Translations under genes and position numbers: made by a program
Virus record (IMG/VR): IMGVR_UViG_3300005096_000013
Location: 1 to 51,070 of that record
From: a virus
Taxonomy: Duplodnaviria; Caudoviricetes
Direction: 5' to 3' (one strand)
DNA length: 51,070 bases
The notes under the pieces: generated by a model
The model's input: only the letters and a program-made list of their open reading frames with translations
Database searches by the model: none
What the model was told of the DNA's origin: nothing
In this document: piece after piece, positions 876-44,572 of the stretch
Layout: the number at the start of each line of letters is the position of its first letter
How positions within the stretch are numbered: the first letter of the stretch is position 1

Positions 876-2063
876 TCACTCCGGGCTCCTTAATAAGTTC
901 ATGATTTCCCCCGTTCCGTTGTTCAACCAGTATCGATACCCGTTAGAAATGGGACTCAACTCCGATTTGACCATCTTCAGCAACTCTAAATCTTCCATCC
1001 AACGCTGAAAGGCCGAACTTTTAACTCCTAATGCTTCCTGCAACTGCTTCTTCGTCACCTTGCCGCTTGGTCCATTACCCCCTCTGGCTTCCATCTCGTC
1101 CAAGCAGCCCAATATATGGCTTCGTATGGATGGAATCGAGTCCATCCCTACTTTCACAACCATCCGGACTATATCCTCCGTCACCCGGCTTTGTTCACGA
1201 ACCACCGTCAGGCTCTGCGTGAGGAGCACCAACTGTTTTATCAGCCTCGTAGGTATCTCAGGTTGTGGTAGGTACATCACATCTCTTGTGAACCGTTCCC
1301 GGGAGACCGCTCCCCGGCCCGTGCTGATGAACAGGGCCAACTTTTTTAGTACATCCATTACCTTCTCCGGTATCTTGACTTCCCGAATCTCCAGTTCCAA
1401 GAGTTTGTGGGCAGCCGCCCTCAGTTCCTCTTTCAGATTGCTTTCGTGGTTGCATGCCTCATGAGCTTTCGCCATCCTCAGGAGGATTTCCTCTTGGCTG
1501 GGGTCTGGCATCCGGTAATAGAGAAATCTCTCTCCAAGGTCCGATAACAAGAGTCGATGGTTCTCAATGGCTTTGGTCACTGCGGCAATCAGTCCGAACT
1601 TTGAGGTGTAGGAAATGTCTCGGCCACTTCCGAAGCTGGCACTGATTGTTCCGTCATATGCACTGCGGAGTTGGCCAAGCACCTCCCGGACCTCATCACT
1701 ACGTTTGGATAGCATTTGAGTGAAGTCCTTTATTATCAACACTTTACCGTGCAACTTCGGGGCTAGGCTGGGGTCCTCTTTGCCCTGTGCCAACTCCTCT
1801 GCTGACATCTCCTTACCACTGACCAACGCATGGGAGGTGAGGCTGTCTCGAATATAGACTTCCGGGTGGCCGTCCGTGCTTACTGCTATTTCGGTCTTGC
1901 CCGACGATGGGGGTCCTACAAGAAAAACCCATAAGGGGATGCTGTCGTATCTGTTGGCTAAGATGGTGCCGAAGATGAAGTCGATGTATTCCCAGTTGGA
2001 GGATACTAGCCATTTCTTAGCACACTTCTTGTAGTCATCGAGTCGGGTCATGGGCTGCTCCAC
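876..2063 (-). CDS. AAA+ P-loop ATPase, MCM-like putative replicative helicase with C-terminal winged helix
   Basis: Walker A GPPSSGKT, Walker B-like LIIKD, arginine-finger-like GERFL, HTH-like C-terminus (KKQLQEALGVKSSAFQRWMEDL). Confidence 0.7.
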   Translation of the reverse strand: MEQPMTRLDDYKKCAKKWLVSSNWEYIDFIFGTILANRYDSIPLWVFLVGPPSSGKTEIAVSTDGHPEVYIRDSLTSHALVSGKEMSAEELAQGKEDPSLAPKLHGKVLIIKDFTQMLSKRSDEVREVLGQLRSAYDGTISASFGSGRDISYTSKFGLIAAVTKAIENHRLLLSDLGERFLYYRMPDPSQEEILLRMAKAHEACNHESNLKEELRAAAHKLLELEIREVKIPEKVMDVLKKLALFISTGRGAVSRERFTRDVMYLPQPEIPTRLIKQLVLLTQSLTVVREQSRVTEDIVRMVVKVGMDSIPSIRSHILGCLDEMEARGGNGPSGKVTKKQLQEALGVKSSAFQRWMEDLELLKMVKSELSPISNGYRYWLNNGTGEIMNLLRSPE

Positions 2064-11878: not shown

Positions 11879-13336
11879 TTGAGAGCCGACATAAGGAAAG
11901 AACTGTGGATTGTAGATAGTAGTTTTAATGGTCAACTCCAAATCGTTGATGATGCTGGTAAGACTCTATCTACAAAGTATTTTGGGGTAATCCCTCCGAA
12001 TGCTATTGATAATATTCACTACGATTGGGTTAATCAGGAATGGTGGATGAGCGAAATGGGAACCGGCACCAACAATCACATCTACCGTCTGGACCGTGCT
12101 CTAAATTTACTCAATACTTACAATATTGCTACCTCGAATTACGAACTAGAATCAGTATGCTATGACCCATCCGATGATAATCTATGGACTCTCAGCGATA
12201 AGTTAACTTTGGAAACTTTGGAGCATCGTAGCCGTTCAGACCCAACAACAGTTTTAGCGACCATCAATTTAGCTGTTCTGGGTGTCGATGGCCCCCAAGA
12301 TATTGATTATGACACTTCCGATGATACTCTGTGGATTGCGGATAATGACTCTACGGGTAACTACGTAGGTCGGCTCTACCACCTGGATAAAGCTGGAAAT
12401 ATTCTTGAAACAATTCCTATCCCTACTACCTTACATTCAGTCCTCTCCGGAAAAGTAGGTAGGTTACAGACCGTGGCTTACGATTCTCGTGATGATACAC
12501 TTTGGATTTCTGGCAGATTTAACTATATCTACCATGTAACTAAAAGCCTCGTCCTGCTAGAATCTTTTGCTTCCCCTTATTTTGGTACGGGTCCAACGAG
12601 TATTGCCTTGGTACCCTGGGGGACACGAGCTAAGGTCTTAAGTCCTACATTGAGCCTTAGAATGTATGACGATGCAACGAACACCCAAGTTGCTGCCCAG
12701 GCTGGAAGTGATGCAACTTTGGAGGGTACCGGCAATACGGAAGATAAGTCTGGGGTTGGACCTATAAAGAATGCTTTTACTTTTAATGGAACAGACAATT
12801 ATATTTCCATTTCCGAGACACTGACTCGTGCTACTGGGTGGACTGTTTCTTGTTGGGCATCCTTTGCATCTACTATATCTTATGAGGTTTTTATTGGGGA
12901 TGGAGCCACAGGAGATAATTGGATACGCCTTACTGATAATACTCGTGTTGCGGCATCTTTTAACGGATATGGTCAAACAGCTACGCCGGGGTTTTCTGCT
13001 TTAAGCCTGAATACTTGGTACCACTTTGTGTTTATCTTTGCATCTTCTAATAACCGACTTCGTATTTTCCTTGATGGTGTAGAGTATAATCCGATTACGG
13101 GGTACGGAGCTATTCCTGACACGTTGTTTACTACTGTAGGTCGAAAGCAGACGGATTATTTTGGTGGAAAGATGAGTAATCTTCTTTTGTTTAATTATGA
13201 ACTTGACCAAGATGAAATAGATTATCTTTACAATGAAGGAGCAGGGGAGGATGCTTTGGAGGAGTCTATTCCGGAGGTTATTAGGCGACAACCCCTTCAG
13301 GAATTAGTGGGTTCTCCAGTTATAGGAGCTTTTTAG
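11879..13336 (+). CDS. Beta-propeller plus LamG/concanavalin A-like protein (putative receptor binding)
   Basis: Repeated YD-x2-DDTLWI blades; C-terminal FNGTDNYI, WTVSCW, NTWYHFV, LRIFLDG LamG motifs. Confidence 0.75.
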   Translation: MRADIRKELWIVDSSFNGQLQIVDDAGKTLSTKYFGVIPPNAIDNIHYDWVNQEWWMSEMGTGTNNHIYRLDRALNLLNTYNIATSNYELESVCYDPSDDNLWTLSDKLTLETLEHRSRSDPTTVLATINLAVLGVDGPQDIDYDTSDDTLWIADNDSTGNYVGRLYHLDKAGNILETIPIPTTLHSVLSGKVGRLQTVAYDSRDDTLWISGRFNYIYHVTKSLVLLESFASPYFGTGPTSIALVPWGTRAKVLSPTLSLRMYDDATNTQVAAQAGSDATLEGTGNTEDKSGVGPIKNAFTFNGTDNYISISETLTRATGWTVSCWASFASTISYEVFIGDGATGDNWIRLTDNTRVAASFNGYGQTATPGFSALSLNTWYHFVFIFASSNNRLRIFLDGVEYNPITGYGAIPDTLFTTVGRKQTDYFGGKMSNLLLFNYELDQDEIDYLYNEGAGEDALEESIPEVIRRQPLQELVGSPVIGAF

Positions 13337-28761: not shown

Positions 28762-28778
28762 CACTCTGGGCTCCTTAT

Positions 28779-28818
28779 AAAATACCGGAGGTAGGACACC
28801 GAGCCCTACCCCCGATAC
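28779..28818 (-). terminator. Terminator hairpin at the convergence of the two gene blocks
   Basis: Minus-strand RNA GUAUCGGGGGUAGGGC pairs fully (with G-U) with GUCCUACCUCCGGUAU, followed by U residues. Confidence 0.7.
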
Positions 28819-28852
28819 GAAAGGAGCAAAAACCTTTTCCATTGCCTAGCAC

Positions 28853-28882
28853 GTTTCAATCCACGTCCTGTAAGAGGACGAC
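28853..28882 (-). CRISPR. Solitary type I-C-like CRISPR repeat (no array)
   Basis: Minus strand GTCGTCCTCTTACAGGACGTGGATTGAAAC: GTCG start, CGTCCT/AGGACG hairpin, GTGGATTGAAAC end. No second copy seen. Confidence 0.75.
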
Positions 28883-29072
28883 AAAAATCTAAAAGTTGAG
28901 TTGACGAGTACTCCAGGAACATCCTGAAGATTGAGAGAAAACTTACGATGCTCTGATGTTTTACATCTAGGAACTGCAGTAATTTTCATTCTGCGGTTTG
29001 GATTCATTCATTTATAAGTCTCCATTTTTAATTTCTAGCATACGCTAAAAGGTAACATCACTCGTCAACTCT

Positions 29073-29106
29073 AAAAGGATGCTGGGTGGATGAGTCCCAA
29101 CATCCT
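29073..29106 (-). terminator. Rho-independent terminator
   Basis: Minus strand GGATGTTGGG-loop-CCCAGCATCC then TTTT, directly after the 29112 stop. Confidence 0.7.
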
Positions 29107-29111
29107 CGGCT

Positions 29112-29540
29112 CTAGGCTTTGTCCGGCATAATAGGTTTAATCTTGGAACTTGCTGCCGCCTCCCTCTCCGCCTTCCGTAGCTCAGGGGCAATAGCAGTTG
29201 TCCAAACCTCTTTATTCTCGGACTTCACCTTCTCCAAGGCTTTCGCATGAGCCCTAGAACCTTTAGTCAGCCTAGCACTCCTTAAGCTAGCCCAACCTGC
29301 AAGTAACCATGGAACCGCGATAGCAAGTATTTCGTTCCATGGAGGGGGAAGAAAAGCACCCACTGCGGGAGCTATTTTCTCCGTGGCGCCTGCAATAGCG
29401 TCCCCCGTCTGCGTGACCTGCTGACTTAAACCCGTAGTCTCTGTACCTGAAGGGCTGGTATAAGTCTGGCAGCCGTAAAGGAACAGAAGAAGTACAAGGA
29501 TTAAGGAGAAGGTCAACAAATAAGACCGTCTGTTCTTCAT
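29112..29540 (-). CDS. Putative lipoprotein/membrane protein
   Basis: Signal peptide ending in lipobox-like LYGC; second hydrophobic helix; AAGGAG RBS. Confidence 0.65.
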   Translation of the reverse strand: MKNRRSYLLTFSLILVLLLFLYGCQTYTSPSGTETTGLSQQVTQTGDAIAGATEKIAPAVGAFLPPPWNEILAIAVPWLLAGWASLRSARLTKGSRAHAKALEKVKSENKEVWTTAIAPELRKAEREAAASSKIKPIMPDKA

Positions 29541-29607
29541 ATCAATCTCCTTACAAGATACAATGGACTCAACAGACTATACCATTATAGCCCGATGGAG
29601 CCCGGAG

Positions 29608-30021
29608 TCAACCATTTTTTTTGTCAGGAATCCACTTCATCGTACCCAGTACGTCACTCTCTCGTATGAAAAGTAACGTAATCTTCCCAACCACAAGAGG
29701 TTGCCCGGCCATCCGACTCATCAATACGTAATCTCCTTCCTTGTAAAGTTTACATTCGGAGCCGATAGCCACTACTCTACCGTAAGGCATGGGTTCTTGG
29801 AAGGCATTGTCAGGCATAAAGATGCCTCCCTCTGTAACCTTACGTTGTTCAATTACCTGTACCATCAAGTAATAGGGAGAAGGCATAGGCACCGAAAGGT
29901 ATCCGGGTTCCCCTTTGGACTCCACAGGGATACTGTCGGGAGACTCCTTACGTTTAAGGGCAGCCTTCGCCGTCTTAAAATTCAAGGTTGATTTTCTGGA
30001 AGTCACTTTCTTTTTAGCCAT
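29608..30021 (-). CDS. groES: GroES-like co-chaperonin
   Basis: TEGGIFMPD mobile loop, GRVVAIG, KEGDYVL, IRESDVLG; GAAAGGA RBS before ATG 30021. Confidence 0.85.
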   Translation of the reverse strand: MAKKKVTSRKSTLNFKTAKAALKRKESPDSIPVESKGEPGYLSVPMPSPYYLMVQVIEQRKVTEGGIFMPDNAFQEPMPYGRVVAIGSECKLYKEGDYVLMSRMAGQPLVVGKITLLFIRESDVLGTMKWIPDKKNG

Positions 30022-30044
30022 ACGTACATCCTTTCGTAAAGGGT

Positions 30045-30076
30045 GGGAGCCCCGGCCCACATAGACCGAGACTCCC
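30045..30076 (-). other. Strong RNA hairpin (terminator or processing site)
   Basis: Minus strand GGGAGTCTCGGTCTA pairs with TGGGCCGGGGCTCCC using G-U pairs; intergenic. Confidence 0.5.
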
Positions 30077-32753: not shown

Positions 32754-33728
32754 TTAAGAACCGCTATCAGTATAACCAAATACAGTAACAGTGAGAGTTG
32801 TTGAAGGGTCTCCAAACAGAGTTATACCTCGGCCACTCCCAATCTTGATGGGATGAGGAAACTCCAAGCAGCCGTCACCTTTACCTGTTAAAGGAATTTC
32901 TTCAAGTGCAGGCAGGGTATCCTTCTCACCTAAGGGGTCATCCGTTTTCCAGTTAGCACTACTGACTAGAGAGGCATTCCCCATGCCTGAAACTACACTC
33001 TCTATCGTAGCTCCTGTACCCTCCCCAAAGTTCCAAGCTGCCGACAAGTTTGTCTCGTCGCCCGAAAAAGCGTAAGGGTCTTGAACCAGTGTAGAAGCAG
33101 TTAATGAGGAGGCGATATAGATACCAAAAGGGCCGAGATATACGAGTATCCCTGTGGAGGCAGTCAAGTCGGTAGTGCCTCCAGTTATCGCACCTACTGA
33201 AGTTAAGGTACCCGATACCGTAGGGCTGTCCGCAACGCCATCGACATAAAGTACAGCGGTATCGTTTGTCCCGTCCCGATTCACAACTCCCATCAAAACA
33301 TGATGCCATGCCGAATTGGACAGTGAAGCAGTTCCGGTGATAGTAGCTGTATCAGTACCATCCCCTATAATTAACTGAATTTTCCCTGAAGATAACTTCA
33401 ATATATATTTATTATCTGCTCCATCATCCTTAGAAAAGAGAGAGGCTACAGAGTCAGAAGTCTTGAAATTAAAATCGAAAAGAAAATCAGAACTATTAGG
33501 CTTCAACGCCGCATTGTCTGCTTGTGTAAAAGTTTCTCCTGAGACTAAACCAAGTGAACCTGAACGGCAAATAGTCATTTTATTACCGGAAGCGGCGGGG
33601 TCAACCAGCAGGCCGGTCAAATAATGGCTTATCCCATGGGAAGCGGGGGCCAAGAAAGTAGCAGGGGATACAGTTAACGTCGCCGAAACAGGCCATCCGA
33701 TACTTGATTGGGGTTTACCGTAAGGCAT
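32754..33728 (-). CDS. LamG/concanavalin A-like domain protein
   Basis: WHHVLM, LYVDGV, NLSAAWNFGEGTG. Confidence 0.7.
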   Translation of the reverse strand: MPYGKPQSSIGWPVSATLTVSPATFLAPASHGISHYLTGLLVDPAASGNKMTICRSGSLGLVSGETFTQADNAALKPNSSDFLFDFNFKTSDSVASLFSKDDGADNKYILKLSSGKIQLIIGDGTDTATITGTASLSNSAWHHVLMGVVNRDGTNDTAVLYVDGVADSPTVSGTLTSVGAITGGTTDLTASTGILVYLGPFGIYIASSLTASTLVQDPYAFSGDETNLSAAWNFGEGTGATIESVVSGMGNASLVSSANWKTDDPLGEKDTLPALEEIPLTGKGDGCLEFPHPIKIGSGRGITLFGDPSTTLTVTVFGYTDSGS

Positions 33729-41701: not shown

Positions 41702-42388
41702 TCAACTGAAAACCTCTAAAGGATTTAATGCTACTTTATATTTTATTGGAGCTTGACGTGTAGATTCCCATCGACCATCAAGGTAGTCCAACAGTAAAGA
41801 CCAGTGAACTTTAACAGCTTCAACAAGATGAGGCTTCCTACCGGGCAACAATATTGCAGGGTGGTAAGTTGCAAAGAACCTTGGATTGCCGGGTAACTCG
41901 GACAACTTAGCACCTTGTGAAGCAAAACCCTCTTTAAGAATTCGTCCAGTTACAGCCCTACAAGCCACTGCTCCTTGTACGAACAAGATAAGTTCCGAGT
42001 AGTAAGTAGATAACACTTTCATATCCTCAAGGAGATAGGGACGGCAACTCTTAATCTTGGAGTTAGTCGGTGTACTGTTCTGTTCAGGTCTGCACCTGCA
42101 AGCATTCGTAAGATAAACATCCACCTTTTCAGATAACTTCACCGAGTCCAGAAATCTGCAAAGCAACTGACCTGTCGGTCCAACCCACGACTTCCCTGCA
42201 ATATCTTCATGGTAGCCGGGAGCTTCACCTACTACCAGCACGGCCTTCTCATGATGGAGCCCGGAGTGACTCTCAACTTCATGTAACCTAGTAGGGAGCC
42301 CGGAGTGAACACACTGAGTCCACAATCCACACTTCTCGTTCTTGCAGGGATATGACACTCCGAAAATGTATGGCTCTACCTGTCCCAT
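41702..42388 (-). CDS. Uracil-DNA glycosylase family 4
   Basis: N-terminal Cys cluster, VGEAPG..E..G..WVG, TNACRCRP, TYHPA. Confidence 0.9.
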   Translation of the reverse strand: MGQVEPYIFGVSYPCKNEKCGLWTQCVHSGLPTRLHEVESHSGLHHEKAVLVVGEAPGYHEDIAGKSWVGPTGQLLCRFLDSVKLSEKVDVYLTNACRCRPEQNSTPTNSKIKSCRPYLLEDMKVLSTYYSELILFVQGAVACRAVTGRILKEGFASQGAKLSELPGNPRFFATYHPAILLPGRKPHLVEAVKVHWSLLLDYLDGRWESTRQAPIKYKVALNPLEVFS

Positions 42389-43072: not shown

Positions 43073-43435
43073 TTAGGCCCTCTTGTATCCGTGTCTGTAG
43101 GGCCGTCGTTTATTGTAAGACATCTTATCTTCGAGGGCTTGGCATAGAGGTATATTCAATTCTTCACACAGGTCGAAGATACGGATAAGGACGTCGGCAA
43201 GTTCACTGGCTATGCCTATCGGCTTACCATCGAGTTCTCTTGCAACCACCTGCATGTCATCACCTTCTCGGTAGGCTTCAAATGCTTCAGAGACTTCTGC
43301 GTGTACGTTGGCCATAAGGTCACCGAAGCTGCGTTCCTTCTCCCACCAACCCTTACTTACAGCTGTAGCGTGGGATTCCGCCATGAGGAGTTCAATTACT
43401 TGTCGTTGTACTGTCCCATCTGGTACTGATTCCAT
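43073..43435 (-). CDS. MazG-like nucleotide pyrophosphohydrolase
   Basis: KGWW, HAEVSEAFEAYR, ELADVLIR, KMSYNKRRPYRHG. Confidence 0.88.
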   Translation of the reverse strand: MESVPDGTVQRQVIELLMAESHATAVSKGWWEKERSFGDLMANVHAEVSEAFEAYREGDDMQVVARELDGKPIGIASELADVLIRIFDLCEELNIPLCQALEDKMSYNKRRPYRHGYKRA

Positions 43436-43884
43436 ATTTTTTTCTCCAATTCGGCCCGGTGTTTGAGGGCTACCCGGTGGGCCTTTTCCCTTGTAGCCAT
43501 AATTTCCAATATATCTTGAAGGTCCCTATCTTCCAACTCTTTGTACCAATAATAGAGTTTCTGAGAGTAGAGTAACAGGCTAGTATAAGACGTAGAGCTT
43601 CGTGACAATTCCCTTATGAAGTAGGGAGGTTGCTTCAGGTCGTAGCAAAATACCACGTATTTCCATATTGGGTAGGATGTGTGGTGCTTGGCGTTCCGGG
43701 CCAGTACGTAGTAGAGCGGCCCCGCCAACTTCCTACACTTGTAGCCTACTACACGAGAGACCTTTGCTGAAATGATAGAAGGTATGGGGTCCAGACGTAG
43801 AGCGGATAGCAGGACCTCGCGGGCTACTGTACGTTTGGGTTTCTTTGAATCTAGTACTCTTATCACTCCGGGCTCCTTAATCAT
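43396..43884 (-). CDS. Hypothetical protein directly downstream of E1
   Basis: Start overlaps the E1 3' end. Confidence 0.6.
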   Translation of the reverse strand: MIKEPGVIRVLDSKKPKRTVAREVLLSALRLDPIPSIISAKVSRVVGYKCRKLAGPLYYVLARNAKHHTSYPIWKYVVFCYDLKQPPYFIRELSRSSTSYTSLLLYSQKLYYWYKELEDRDLQDILEIMATREKAHRVALKHRAELEKKIWNQYQMGQYNDK

Positions 43885-44572
43885 AAGTCATTGACAATGC
43901 CAGTATGTTACAGTGAAGAACAGACTGAAGAGGCATGTAACGTAAATGTTGGGAGAAATAAGCAACCAACGTTGCTGCACACATGGAGGCACAGTAGAGA
44001 GTTGTCTTAGCGGTGCACCTGACTTTGGCTGCCTCCTCTTGGGGAAATAAGGATTTCTCATAGGCAGCGATGCTTTCAGAATCACGCTTGTAGCAAGATA
44101 ATATATCGTACTGCTCGGCGGCCAAGCGGGAGTCCAACCACAATACAGCTTCAGGACTACAGTCTTTCGATTTGAAAGCGTGAACAAAAATGCTTCGGCG
44201 GGCTGATATACTATCTACACAGCAGAAAGTGACAGCCTGTAAAGGTTTTGTAACTTCGTAACGAGTAGGTATTGCAGTCACTTCGATTTCCGGATAGATT
44301 CGGGTCATGTCATCTAGGCAGGCTGAGACTTTGAGCTGCCCTAACTGGTCAGGCCGAAAACCTTGAACCCCTAAGTTGGCTTCATCTACGGTGTCGTGGT
44401 CCCATAGGGTTATATGTTTTACACCCATAGCTGCAAGTATTAGAGCTACTTGCCTGCCTACTGCACCTACTCCGATGATTCCAACAGTTGTGTCTTGGAG
44501 CCATTGGTCGGGGAGAATATCCCACTGTCTTGCGTTACGTAATCCGAGAGTTGGTTCTTTAGTTTTTACCAT
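43877..44572 (-). CDS. ThiF/E1-like ubiquitin-activating enzyme
   Basis: ARQ, GVGAVG, DHDTVDEANL, KV, CVDSISAR, candidate catalytic Cys in RCTAK. Confidence 0.9.
   Translation of the reverse strand: MVKTKEPTLGLRNARQWDILPDQWLQDTTVGIIGVGAVGRQVALILAAMGVKHITLWDHDTVDEANLGVQGFRPDQLGQLKVSACLDDMTRIYPEIEVTAIPTRYEVTKPLQAVTFCCVDSISARRSIFVHAFKSKDCSPEAVLWLDSRLAAEQYDILSCYKRDSESIAAYEKSLFPQEEAAKVRCTAKTTLYCASMCAATLVAYFSQHLRYMPLQSVLHCNILALSMTYD

Follow-up and report, generated by a model that had tools for sequence, protein, structure and literature searches.

Viral mini-CRISPR arrays have a repeat-spacer-repeat structure and are used in conflicts between viruses. Such arrays are mentioned in the introduction of the study by Camara-Wilpert et al. 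2023 (PMC10651486), which reports that solitary repeat units of viruses act as RNA anti-CRISPRs (Racrs) and lists 2,103 such units on viral sequences. The validated type I-C case described there, RacrIC1, is located 11 nt after a homologue of acrIC5.

Another described group is that of the viral Cracr RNAs (10.1101/2024.10.29.618823). One of them, CracrVA1, has a lone pseudo-repeat that is followed by a pseudo-spacer and a rho-independent terminator, and type I-C candidates have been reported. By the definition given in that work, a Cracr has at least nine PAM-proximal matches to host CreR/CreA spacers or to the promoters of cas genes or creT, and the pseudo-spacers of type I-E Cracrs are 21-24 nt long. 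In hosts, solitary type I-C repeats give rise to crRNA-like RNAs of 48-50 nt that carry an 11-nt handle and have their 3′ end inside a hairpin (10.1101/2024.12.27.630466). These RNAs regulate the Nezha, Gabija and ‘CRISIS’ systems, and their PAMs are TTC or TTA (10.1101/2024.12.27.630466).

The structural basis for recognizing such units has been described for type I-C. The repeat forms a 7-bp stem with a pentaloop, flanked by overhangs of 2 nt and 11 nt; recognition by Cas5c is centred on the U-G-G right after the cut and does not involve the loop or the 5′ overhang, and the mature crRNA is made of the 11-nt handle, the spacer and a 21-nt stem-loop (PMC8524198). In the assembled Cascade, Cas5c and one Cas7 clamp the 5′ handle and seven Cas7 subunits follow, with no Cas6 at the 3′ end (PMC7684278). 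Since nucleation takes place on the handle only and without Cas6, one upstream repeat suffices to load type I-C Cascade.

Here we describe a unit of this general form in IMG/VR virus record IMGVR_UViG_3300005096_000013. The whole record, 51,070 bases, was analysed and is called the window below; it is classed as linear and is an estimated 97% complete. On its minus strand a lone type I-C repeat is followed by 34 nt and a hairpin (Table 1). Our tentative reading, and the most likely of those considered, is that the phage carries a crRNA mimic of the Racr (solitary-repeat) type, which serves as a decoy for host CRISPR proteins; we give this reading a probability of roughly 40%.

Table 1. The lone repeat and neighbouring features, in window coordinates
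Feature	Position	Strand	Remarks
1042-aa ORF	ends 28761	rightward	last ORF of the structural module
16-bp hairpin (28782-28818, 4 G-U pairs) with U-rich tail UUUAUA	28776..28818	(-)	from fold
34-nt spacer-like stretch (pseudo-spacer), GTGCTAGGCAATGGAAAAGGTTTTTGCTCCTTTC	28819..28852	(-)	between repeat and hairpin
Solitary type I-C-like CRISPR repeat (pseudo-repeat)	28853..28882	(-)	from pattern searches and fold
53-codon ORF (MNPNRR...WIETC) through the repeat	28846..29007	(-)	open frame with ATG
Hairpin followed by UUUUAG, possible partial terminator	29076..29106	(-)	-19.3 kcal/mol, z -3.1; just past the 142-aa ORF
Orphan 142-aa ORF	29112..29540	(-)	directly upstream of the unit
Sigma-70-like promoter, TTGACT-16-TATAAT, 11/12	29584..29611	(-)	best nearby; in the gap before the 142-aa ORF

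A single type I-C repeat

The initial annotation of this locus had noted a 30-nt repeat on the minus strand, and the repeat, GTCGTCCTCTTACAGGACGTGGATTGAAAC, is indeed present as described. It is single-copy in the window even when three mismatches are allowed, and none of 100 shuffled sequences contained a match. A general type I-C pattern, GTCG-N13-19-CGTGGATTGAAAC, likewise has this repeat as its sole match in the window and found nothing in 100 shuffles. When only the 13-nt tail of the repeat was searched with two mismatches, one further site appeared in the window, which is the level expected by chance.

Folded in isolation, the 30-mer is predicted to form a 2-nt GU overhang, a 6-bp stem (CGUCCU/AGGACG), a 5-nt loop (CUUAC) and an 11-nt tail, UGGAUUGAAAC, with a free energy of -7.5 kcal/mol. 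Everything in the published type I-C anatomy is thereby retained except one stem pair (six base pairs instead of seven). The tail is exact and places U-G-G directly past the predicted Cas5c cut site, which by the rule given in PMC8524198 falls between 28864 and 28863. The type I-C form assigned earlier is therefore confirmed by the fold, the GTCG start and the tail.

A comparison with repeat databases had been proposed as a check. At gathering thresholds an Rfam search of the window returned no match; the top entry, CRISPR-DR9, reached 16.1 bits (E = 0.7), where the gathering score is 45, and so stays below the curated cutoff. Agreement came from array repeats that we collected, in which the 13-nt end is identical in 24 of 24 distinct sequences, these repeats having been ascertained by that same end. 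A MAFFT alignment of the 24 repeats was not in structural register.

We conclude that the feature is a real copy of a type I-C repeat, beyond chance. Its single copy, type I-C fold and intact tail argue for the decoy reading.

No Cas family was detected among 56 ORFs scanned against Pfam, in keeping with the earlier statement that a cas operon is missing. The locus has the properties of a solitary repeat unit: a single copy on a virus record, no cas genes and an overlapping ORF that scores as non-coding (see below). With one repeat only and Cas families absent from the 56 ORFs, it does not qualify as a CRISPR array or CRISPR-Cas locus. Nor does it qualify as a viral mini-CRISPR array, as a second repeat is absent in the window and a protospacer is absent from the viral collections searched.

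The 34-nt segment and the hairpin

The 34 nt and the 16-bp hairpin that follow the repeat were found exactly as first annotated. To place the length of the segment in context, we used 37 array loci collected with the same repeat ends. Their spacers are 34 nt long in 119 of 354 cases and 33-36 nt long in 76%. Thirty-four nucleotides is therefore the commonest spacer length in these type I-C arrays and the phage segment has the modal length.

The hairpin is far more stable as minus-strand RNA (-27.6 kcal/mol, z -7.0) than as plus-strand RNA (-14.4 kcal/mol), and thus is an element of minus-strand RNA. It likely forms the 3′ end of leftward transcripts. With the repeat and the segment before it, the hairpin completes the layout by which Cracrs are recognized, namely pseudo-repeat, pseudo-spacer and then a hairpin or terminator.

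The unit had also been described as lying between two terminators. A strong hairpin is indeed present on each side, one being that just described and the other lying just past the 142-aa ORF. The designation as terminators did not hold to the same extent, as only about four U residues follow each hairpin and a consensus terminator scan called neither of them.

The hairpin occupies the place that the hairpin of a second repeat would have, and it starts with GU. These two features, together with the exact modal spacer length, suggest another reading, in which a lytic phage carries a one-repeat guide gene with a full-length 34-nt guide and a terminating hairpin that replaces the second repeat. 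Host Cas5c would produce the 5′ handle of this guide. Host Cascade-Cas3 would then be armed against a rival phage or plasmid or against a host (defence) locus, and the outcome would be cutting, which goes beyond decoying or repression. That only the 5′ handle is specifically recognized in type I-C Cascade (PMC7684278) also favours a guide of this design. The searches reported below, which bear on its target and on its layout, make this reading quite improbable.

Setting in the phage genome

The unit is positioned at the convergent junction of two modules, a structural one running rightward and a replication one running leftward. The leftward module encodes a family A polymerase, an ERCC4-like nuclease, a PD-(D/E)XK exonuclease, a Sak4-like ATPase, an SSB and a Cpn10-like protein. 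None of the 56 ORFs matched an integrase or recombinase family in Pfam or PHROG, and no tRNA genes were found in the window. That a virus record estimated to be 97% complete has neither a Cas nor an integrase family among its 56 ORFs is a further point for the decoy reading.

The same result bears on the possibility that the repeat is an attachment site through which the phage integrates into a host CRISPR array. The idea is mentioned for viral solitary repeats in PMC10651486. For the phage studied here its likelihood is next to negligible, given the lack of integrase and recombinase families among the 56 ORFs and a replication module of lytic style (family A polymerase, Sak4-like protein, exonuclease and SSB).

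Related-locus searches with the 142-aa ORF, the polymerase and the terminase recovered no phage relatives. A tblastn search with the terminase and the polymerase gave matches at 23-27% identity only, and blastn of the locus against phage records produced a single 23-nt chance match. Related phages that would show conservation of the unit were thus not found in these searches, and this counts against the decoy reading. Moreover, a hairpin is expected at a convergent junction of modules with or without a repeat, which likewise speaks against that reading.

Both of these observations, along with the lack of a dedicated promoter (see below), would suit an inert relic, in which the repeat was acquired by recombination with a host array, or remains from a mini-array that decayed, and now lies within untranslated sequence at the 3′ end of the leftward module. 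The state of the repeat makes this rather unlikely: decaying sequence would not be expected to keep 13 of 13 tail bases, the GUCG start and a perfect 6-bp stem, as this repeat does, and neither a second repeat nor a remnant of cas genes could be traced in the window.

Several other genes of this phage deserve mention. The Cpn10/GroES-like gene (29608-30060, minus strand) has a 60-aa N-terminal extension. A MazG-like pyrophosphatase is encoded beside a ThiF-family protein (43073-44572, minus strand), and a gene of the uracil-DNA glycosylase family is also present (41702-42388, minus strand). Two proteins with a Laminin_G_3 (concanavalin-like lectin) domain are present, one in the structural module (11879-13336, plus strand) and one inside the replication module (32754-33728, minus strand).

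Transcription and the overlapping ORF

No promoter was found directly upstream of the repeat, where the best candidate matches 7 of 12 consensus positions, and this is evidence against the decoy reading. The best promoter nearby is the sigma-70-like site in the gap before the 142-aa ORF. Promoter-like sites occur at chance frequency across the region (29 found, 27.4 expected), so this site is a lead only. It would likely be the source of read-through transcripts that reach the repeat.

The 142-aa ORF between this promoter and the unit matched only itself among 5.8 billion clusters, and had no sequence match in the PDB and none in Pfam or PHROG. The nearest Atlas clusters are hypothetical proteins of viruses. 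That it might be an anti-CRISPR protein is speculation only.

The 53-codon ORF that runs through the repeat raises the possibility that it is a real small protein gene and that the repeat-like bases are simply its 3′ end. Its open frame begins with ATG, and a GGAG is present upstream. However, 12 nt separate the GGAG from this ATG, and its placement better suits a 14-codon ORF starting at 29011. The codon score of the 53-codon ORF, -0.037 per codon, is lower than that of every one of 54 assumed genes, for which the minimum is -0.013 and the median 0.14. It coincides with the median of 137 spurious ORFs, so that half of these have the same score or a higher one. Homologues were absent from 5.8 billion clusters in the length range searched, and no family in Pfam or PHROG matched. 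Also, a full type I-C repeat inside the ORF is not explicable by chance. A small protein gene is thus highly improbable, and by these measures the 53-codon ORF is probably not a gene.

If it is not, positions 28883-29070 are probably an untranslated leader. The initial annotation had stated that conservation of the segment as protein would count against its proposal; the ORF proved to have no homologue and a non-coding codon score, and the searches above had found no related phage in which conservation might be seen. Together with the minus-strand specificity of the hairpin, these properties of the overlapping ORF favour the decoy reading.

The 14-codon ORF itself (28967-29011, minus strand) has its ATG 8 nt past the GGAG, a better placement than that of the 53-codon ATG, and could be a leader peptide or a chance occurrence.

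Searches for a host and a target

A mimic of this kind predicts a host with a type I-C system. The exact repeat was absent from the viral contigs searched, and the repeat with a free loop was absent from the genomes of 185,579 species. A relaxed 30-nt pattern recovered 37 genome stretches, among which the closest array repeats differ from the phage repeat at 5 of 30 positions, including a compensating change of a stem pair. No host array with a close repeat was therefore found in these genomes, a point against the decoy reading. Comparison of 396 spacers from the collected arrays with the phage gave a longest match of 16 nt with one mismatch, and two Atlas look-ups returned viral clusters only, with no host lead.

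The initial annotation had suggested that BLAST searches with the 34-mer, and a search for a TTC PAM, might reveal a target. None was found in phage records, viral contigs, the phage’s own genome or five candidate genomes. The exact 34-mer was absent from the viral contigs, as were its first 23 nt with every sixth base left free. Against 50,697 phage records only chance matches were obtained (E = 4), and the best match in the phage’s own genome, 21 of 34 positions, was the same as for shuffled sequences. These results speak against the reading as a full guide. They fit the decoy reading.

The search results also bear on another possible function for the RNA. As a regulatory mimic of the Cracr type, the PAM-proximal bases of the 34-mer would pair with a promoter in the type I-C locus of the host, be it that of the cas genes, of a CreT toxin or of a defence system under CRISPR supervision, and the loaded host Cascade would silence that promoter without cutting. 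The layout of the unit is that of CracrVA1, and type I-C Cracrs are among those reported, as noted above (10.1101/2024.10.29.618823). Moreover, the host crRNA-like RNAs made from solitary type I-C repeats have an 11-nt handle and a 3′ hairpin (10.1101/2024.12.27.630466).

However, TTC followed by the first 11 nt of the 34-mer did not occur in five genomes chosen for the nearest type I-C repeats and a fitting base composition. In addition, of 665 14-mers located downstream of repeats in the collected loci, none had more than four leading bases in common with the 34-mer. The published pseudo-spacers are also usually shorter, at 21-24 nt in type I-E (10.1101/2024.10.29.618823). We rate a Cracr-type function as rather unlikely; two lone units in other contigs, described in the next section, speak in its favour.

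Lone repeats in other contigs

When viral contigs were scanned for all repeats of the form GTCG...CGTGGATTGAAAC, at least 116 stretches were returned. Among the matches listed, we examined 92 stretches with one match (91 loci and the window), and 83 of these 92 have no second repeat-like copy within 300-400 nt on each side. Lone type I-C-like repeats are therefore common in viral contigs, which is consistent with the decoy reading.

Among the matches listed, 77 lone repeats had enough flanking sequence for their surroundings to be compared with antisense controls. A hairpin with a T-run starting 20-50 nt downstream is present in 6 of 77, against 4 of 77 controls, so the succession of repeat, spacer-length segment and terminator is not a general property of lone type I-C-like repeats. 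This absence of enrichment argues against the full guide, since the spacing in the phage may then be coincidence. By the same approach, and again among the matches listed, a promoter of at least 9/12 ending within 20 nt of the repeat is found in 5 of 77 lone repeats and in 0 of 77 controls, an observation that supports the decoy reading.

Searching metagenomes with a free loop and one free stem pair identified four stretches, none of them identical to the phage repeat. One (L005, a metagenome contig) is a real type I-C array with 34-nt spacers. Another (L002, a sediment metagenome contig) carries a lone repeat at 345-374 on the minus strand whose first 11 bases are common to the repeat of the window. 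This is a self-contained unit: a TTGACT-16-TATAAT promoter ends 8 nt before the repeat, which is followed by 26 nt, a 9-bp hairpin and eight T.

A scan for repeats starting with GTCGTCCT added two further lone units. The first (L159), on a 39-kb viral contig, is a lone 29-nt repeat at 1501-1529 on the plus strand with the same stem as the repeat of the window. TATAAT is found 6 nt upstream, and downstream there are 32 nt and then a hairpin of 12 bp (-21.9 kcal/mol), which lacks a T-run and faces the end of an opposite-strand ORF of 470 aa. The second (L160) is a lone unit in front of a gene. The layout seen in the window thus recurs in two lone units with the same first eight bases (L002 and L159, 26-32 nt and then a hairpin), and it is this recurrence that lends some support to a Cracr-type function. 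The four lone units that start with GTCGTCCT have no similarity outside the repeat.

Other arrangements came to light among the collected loci. In the array of L005, adjacent repeats vary in stem and loop while the 13-nt tail is kept. A Latescibacterota assembly (L130) has two type I-C repeat look-alikes 12 nt apart (about 1000-1075, minus strand), directly before an ORF with a GTG start and away from any array; the pair looks like a host crRNA-like regulatory mini-array. Two more Latescibacterota assemblies (L131 and L144) have a lone repeat that, together with the next 14 nt, is the same as in L130. On a metagenome contig (L003, about 1945-2030, plus strand), two repeat look-alikes 19 nt apart just past the end of a long ORF are another short-spacer mini-array of CreR/CreA style.

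A 30-mer with the type I-C pattern is also present in a Desulfovibrio MAG (L132, 1001-1030, plus strand), inside a 559-aa ORF on the opposite strand. It may be a coincidence, with an estimated 0.3 or so chance matches expected in the collection. A tblastn match of a frame of the window to this locus was rejected, because the 559-aa ORF is on the other strand and the match is in a different frame.

A proposed decoy RNA

The decoy reading can be stated as a sequence of steps. Leftward transcription would start at the promoter before the 142-aa ORF, and the transcript would read through the weak hairpin after that ORF, cross the repeat and end at the strong hairpin. If the host has a type I-C system, its Cas5c would cleave this transcript between 28864 and 28863, where the repeat stem ends on its 3′ side, giving a product composed of the 11-nt handle, the 34 nt and the hairpin. 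Cas5c and Cas7 would assemble on the handle, and because they do so the RNA would take up Cas5c and Cas7 (and Cas8c and Cas11c) in complexes that contain no host spacer. With complexes occupied in this way, CRISPR interference against the phage would be lowered. The Cas5c cut, the handle-nucleated assembly and the Racr effect are taken from the papers cited; for the phage unit we infer its transcription, its processing, the CRISPR type of its host and its inhibitory effect.

The premise that solitary repeats can act as RNA anti-CRISPRs is well founded in print, and the validated RacrIC1 and the 2,103 viral solitary repeats (PMC10651486) support the decoy reading, as does the nucleation of type I-C Cascade by the 5′ handle alone (PMC7684278). 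The initial interpretation is thus supported in part. The handle-34 nt-hairpin RNA that it proposed is a reasonable product given such nucleation; a matching host array and a target in the sequences searched, and a promoter directly upstream, were not found. Two further points weaken the case for a decoy. The exact repeat of the window does not occur in the supplement text that was searched from the Racr paper (PMC10651486), and a segment of the modal 34 nt would give a complex of normal size, unlike the aberrant one described for RacrIF1.

Discussion

The unit adds one more lone type I-C repeat to a published class, from a phage without known relatives or a catalogued host. It illustrates a known principle and adds none, as the principle and even the layout are already in print. 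Its simplicity, with one repeat, a modal 34 nt and a hairpin, makes it a clean object with which to test whether type I-C mimics are plain decoys or directed guides. Which of the two they are matters for the extent to which host CRISPR proteins can be reprogrammed by phage RNA, and for compact one-repeat guide designs in type I-C tools.

Among the systems described, viral mini-CRISPR arrays resemble the unit in that a spacer-length segment is carried by a phage beside a repeat of host type. They differ in that the window has one repeat, and a matching protospacer is absent from the viral collections searched.

The host crRNA-like RNAs of type I-C (10.1101/2024.12.27.630466) are closer in form, each with one unit that resembles a type I-C repeat, a handle of 11 nt left by Cas5c cleavage (predicted in the window) and a 3′ end at a hairpin. 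As described, however, these host RNAs are located in cas operons, between defence genes and cas5c, and partly match a nearby promoter, whereas the unit in the window is borne by a phage and has no detectable target. Viral Cracrs (10.1101/2024.10.29.618823) share with the unit both the viral location and the arrangement of pseudo-repeat, pseudo-spacer and hairpin or terminator, type I-C examples included. In contrast to these, the 34-nt segment exceeds the 21-24 nt reported for type I-E, and a PAM-proximal match was not found in the sequences searched.

The Racrs, and RacrIC1 in particular, provide the remaining comparison (PMC10651486). RacrIC1 resides in a Bifidobacterium prophage and shares one transcript with the acrIC5 homologue, whereas the orphan ORF of the window is 230 nt upstream of the unit with a hairpin between them. 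Compared with RacrIC1, the unit of the window has a 30-nt repeat with a 6-bp stem. In both, a lone repeat look-alike is found in a phage with no cas genes or other repeats, and the repeat is of type I-C form with its hairpin and tail intact.
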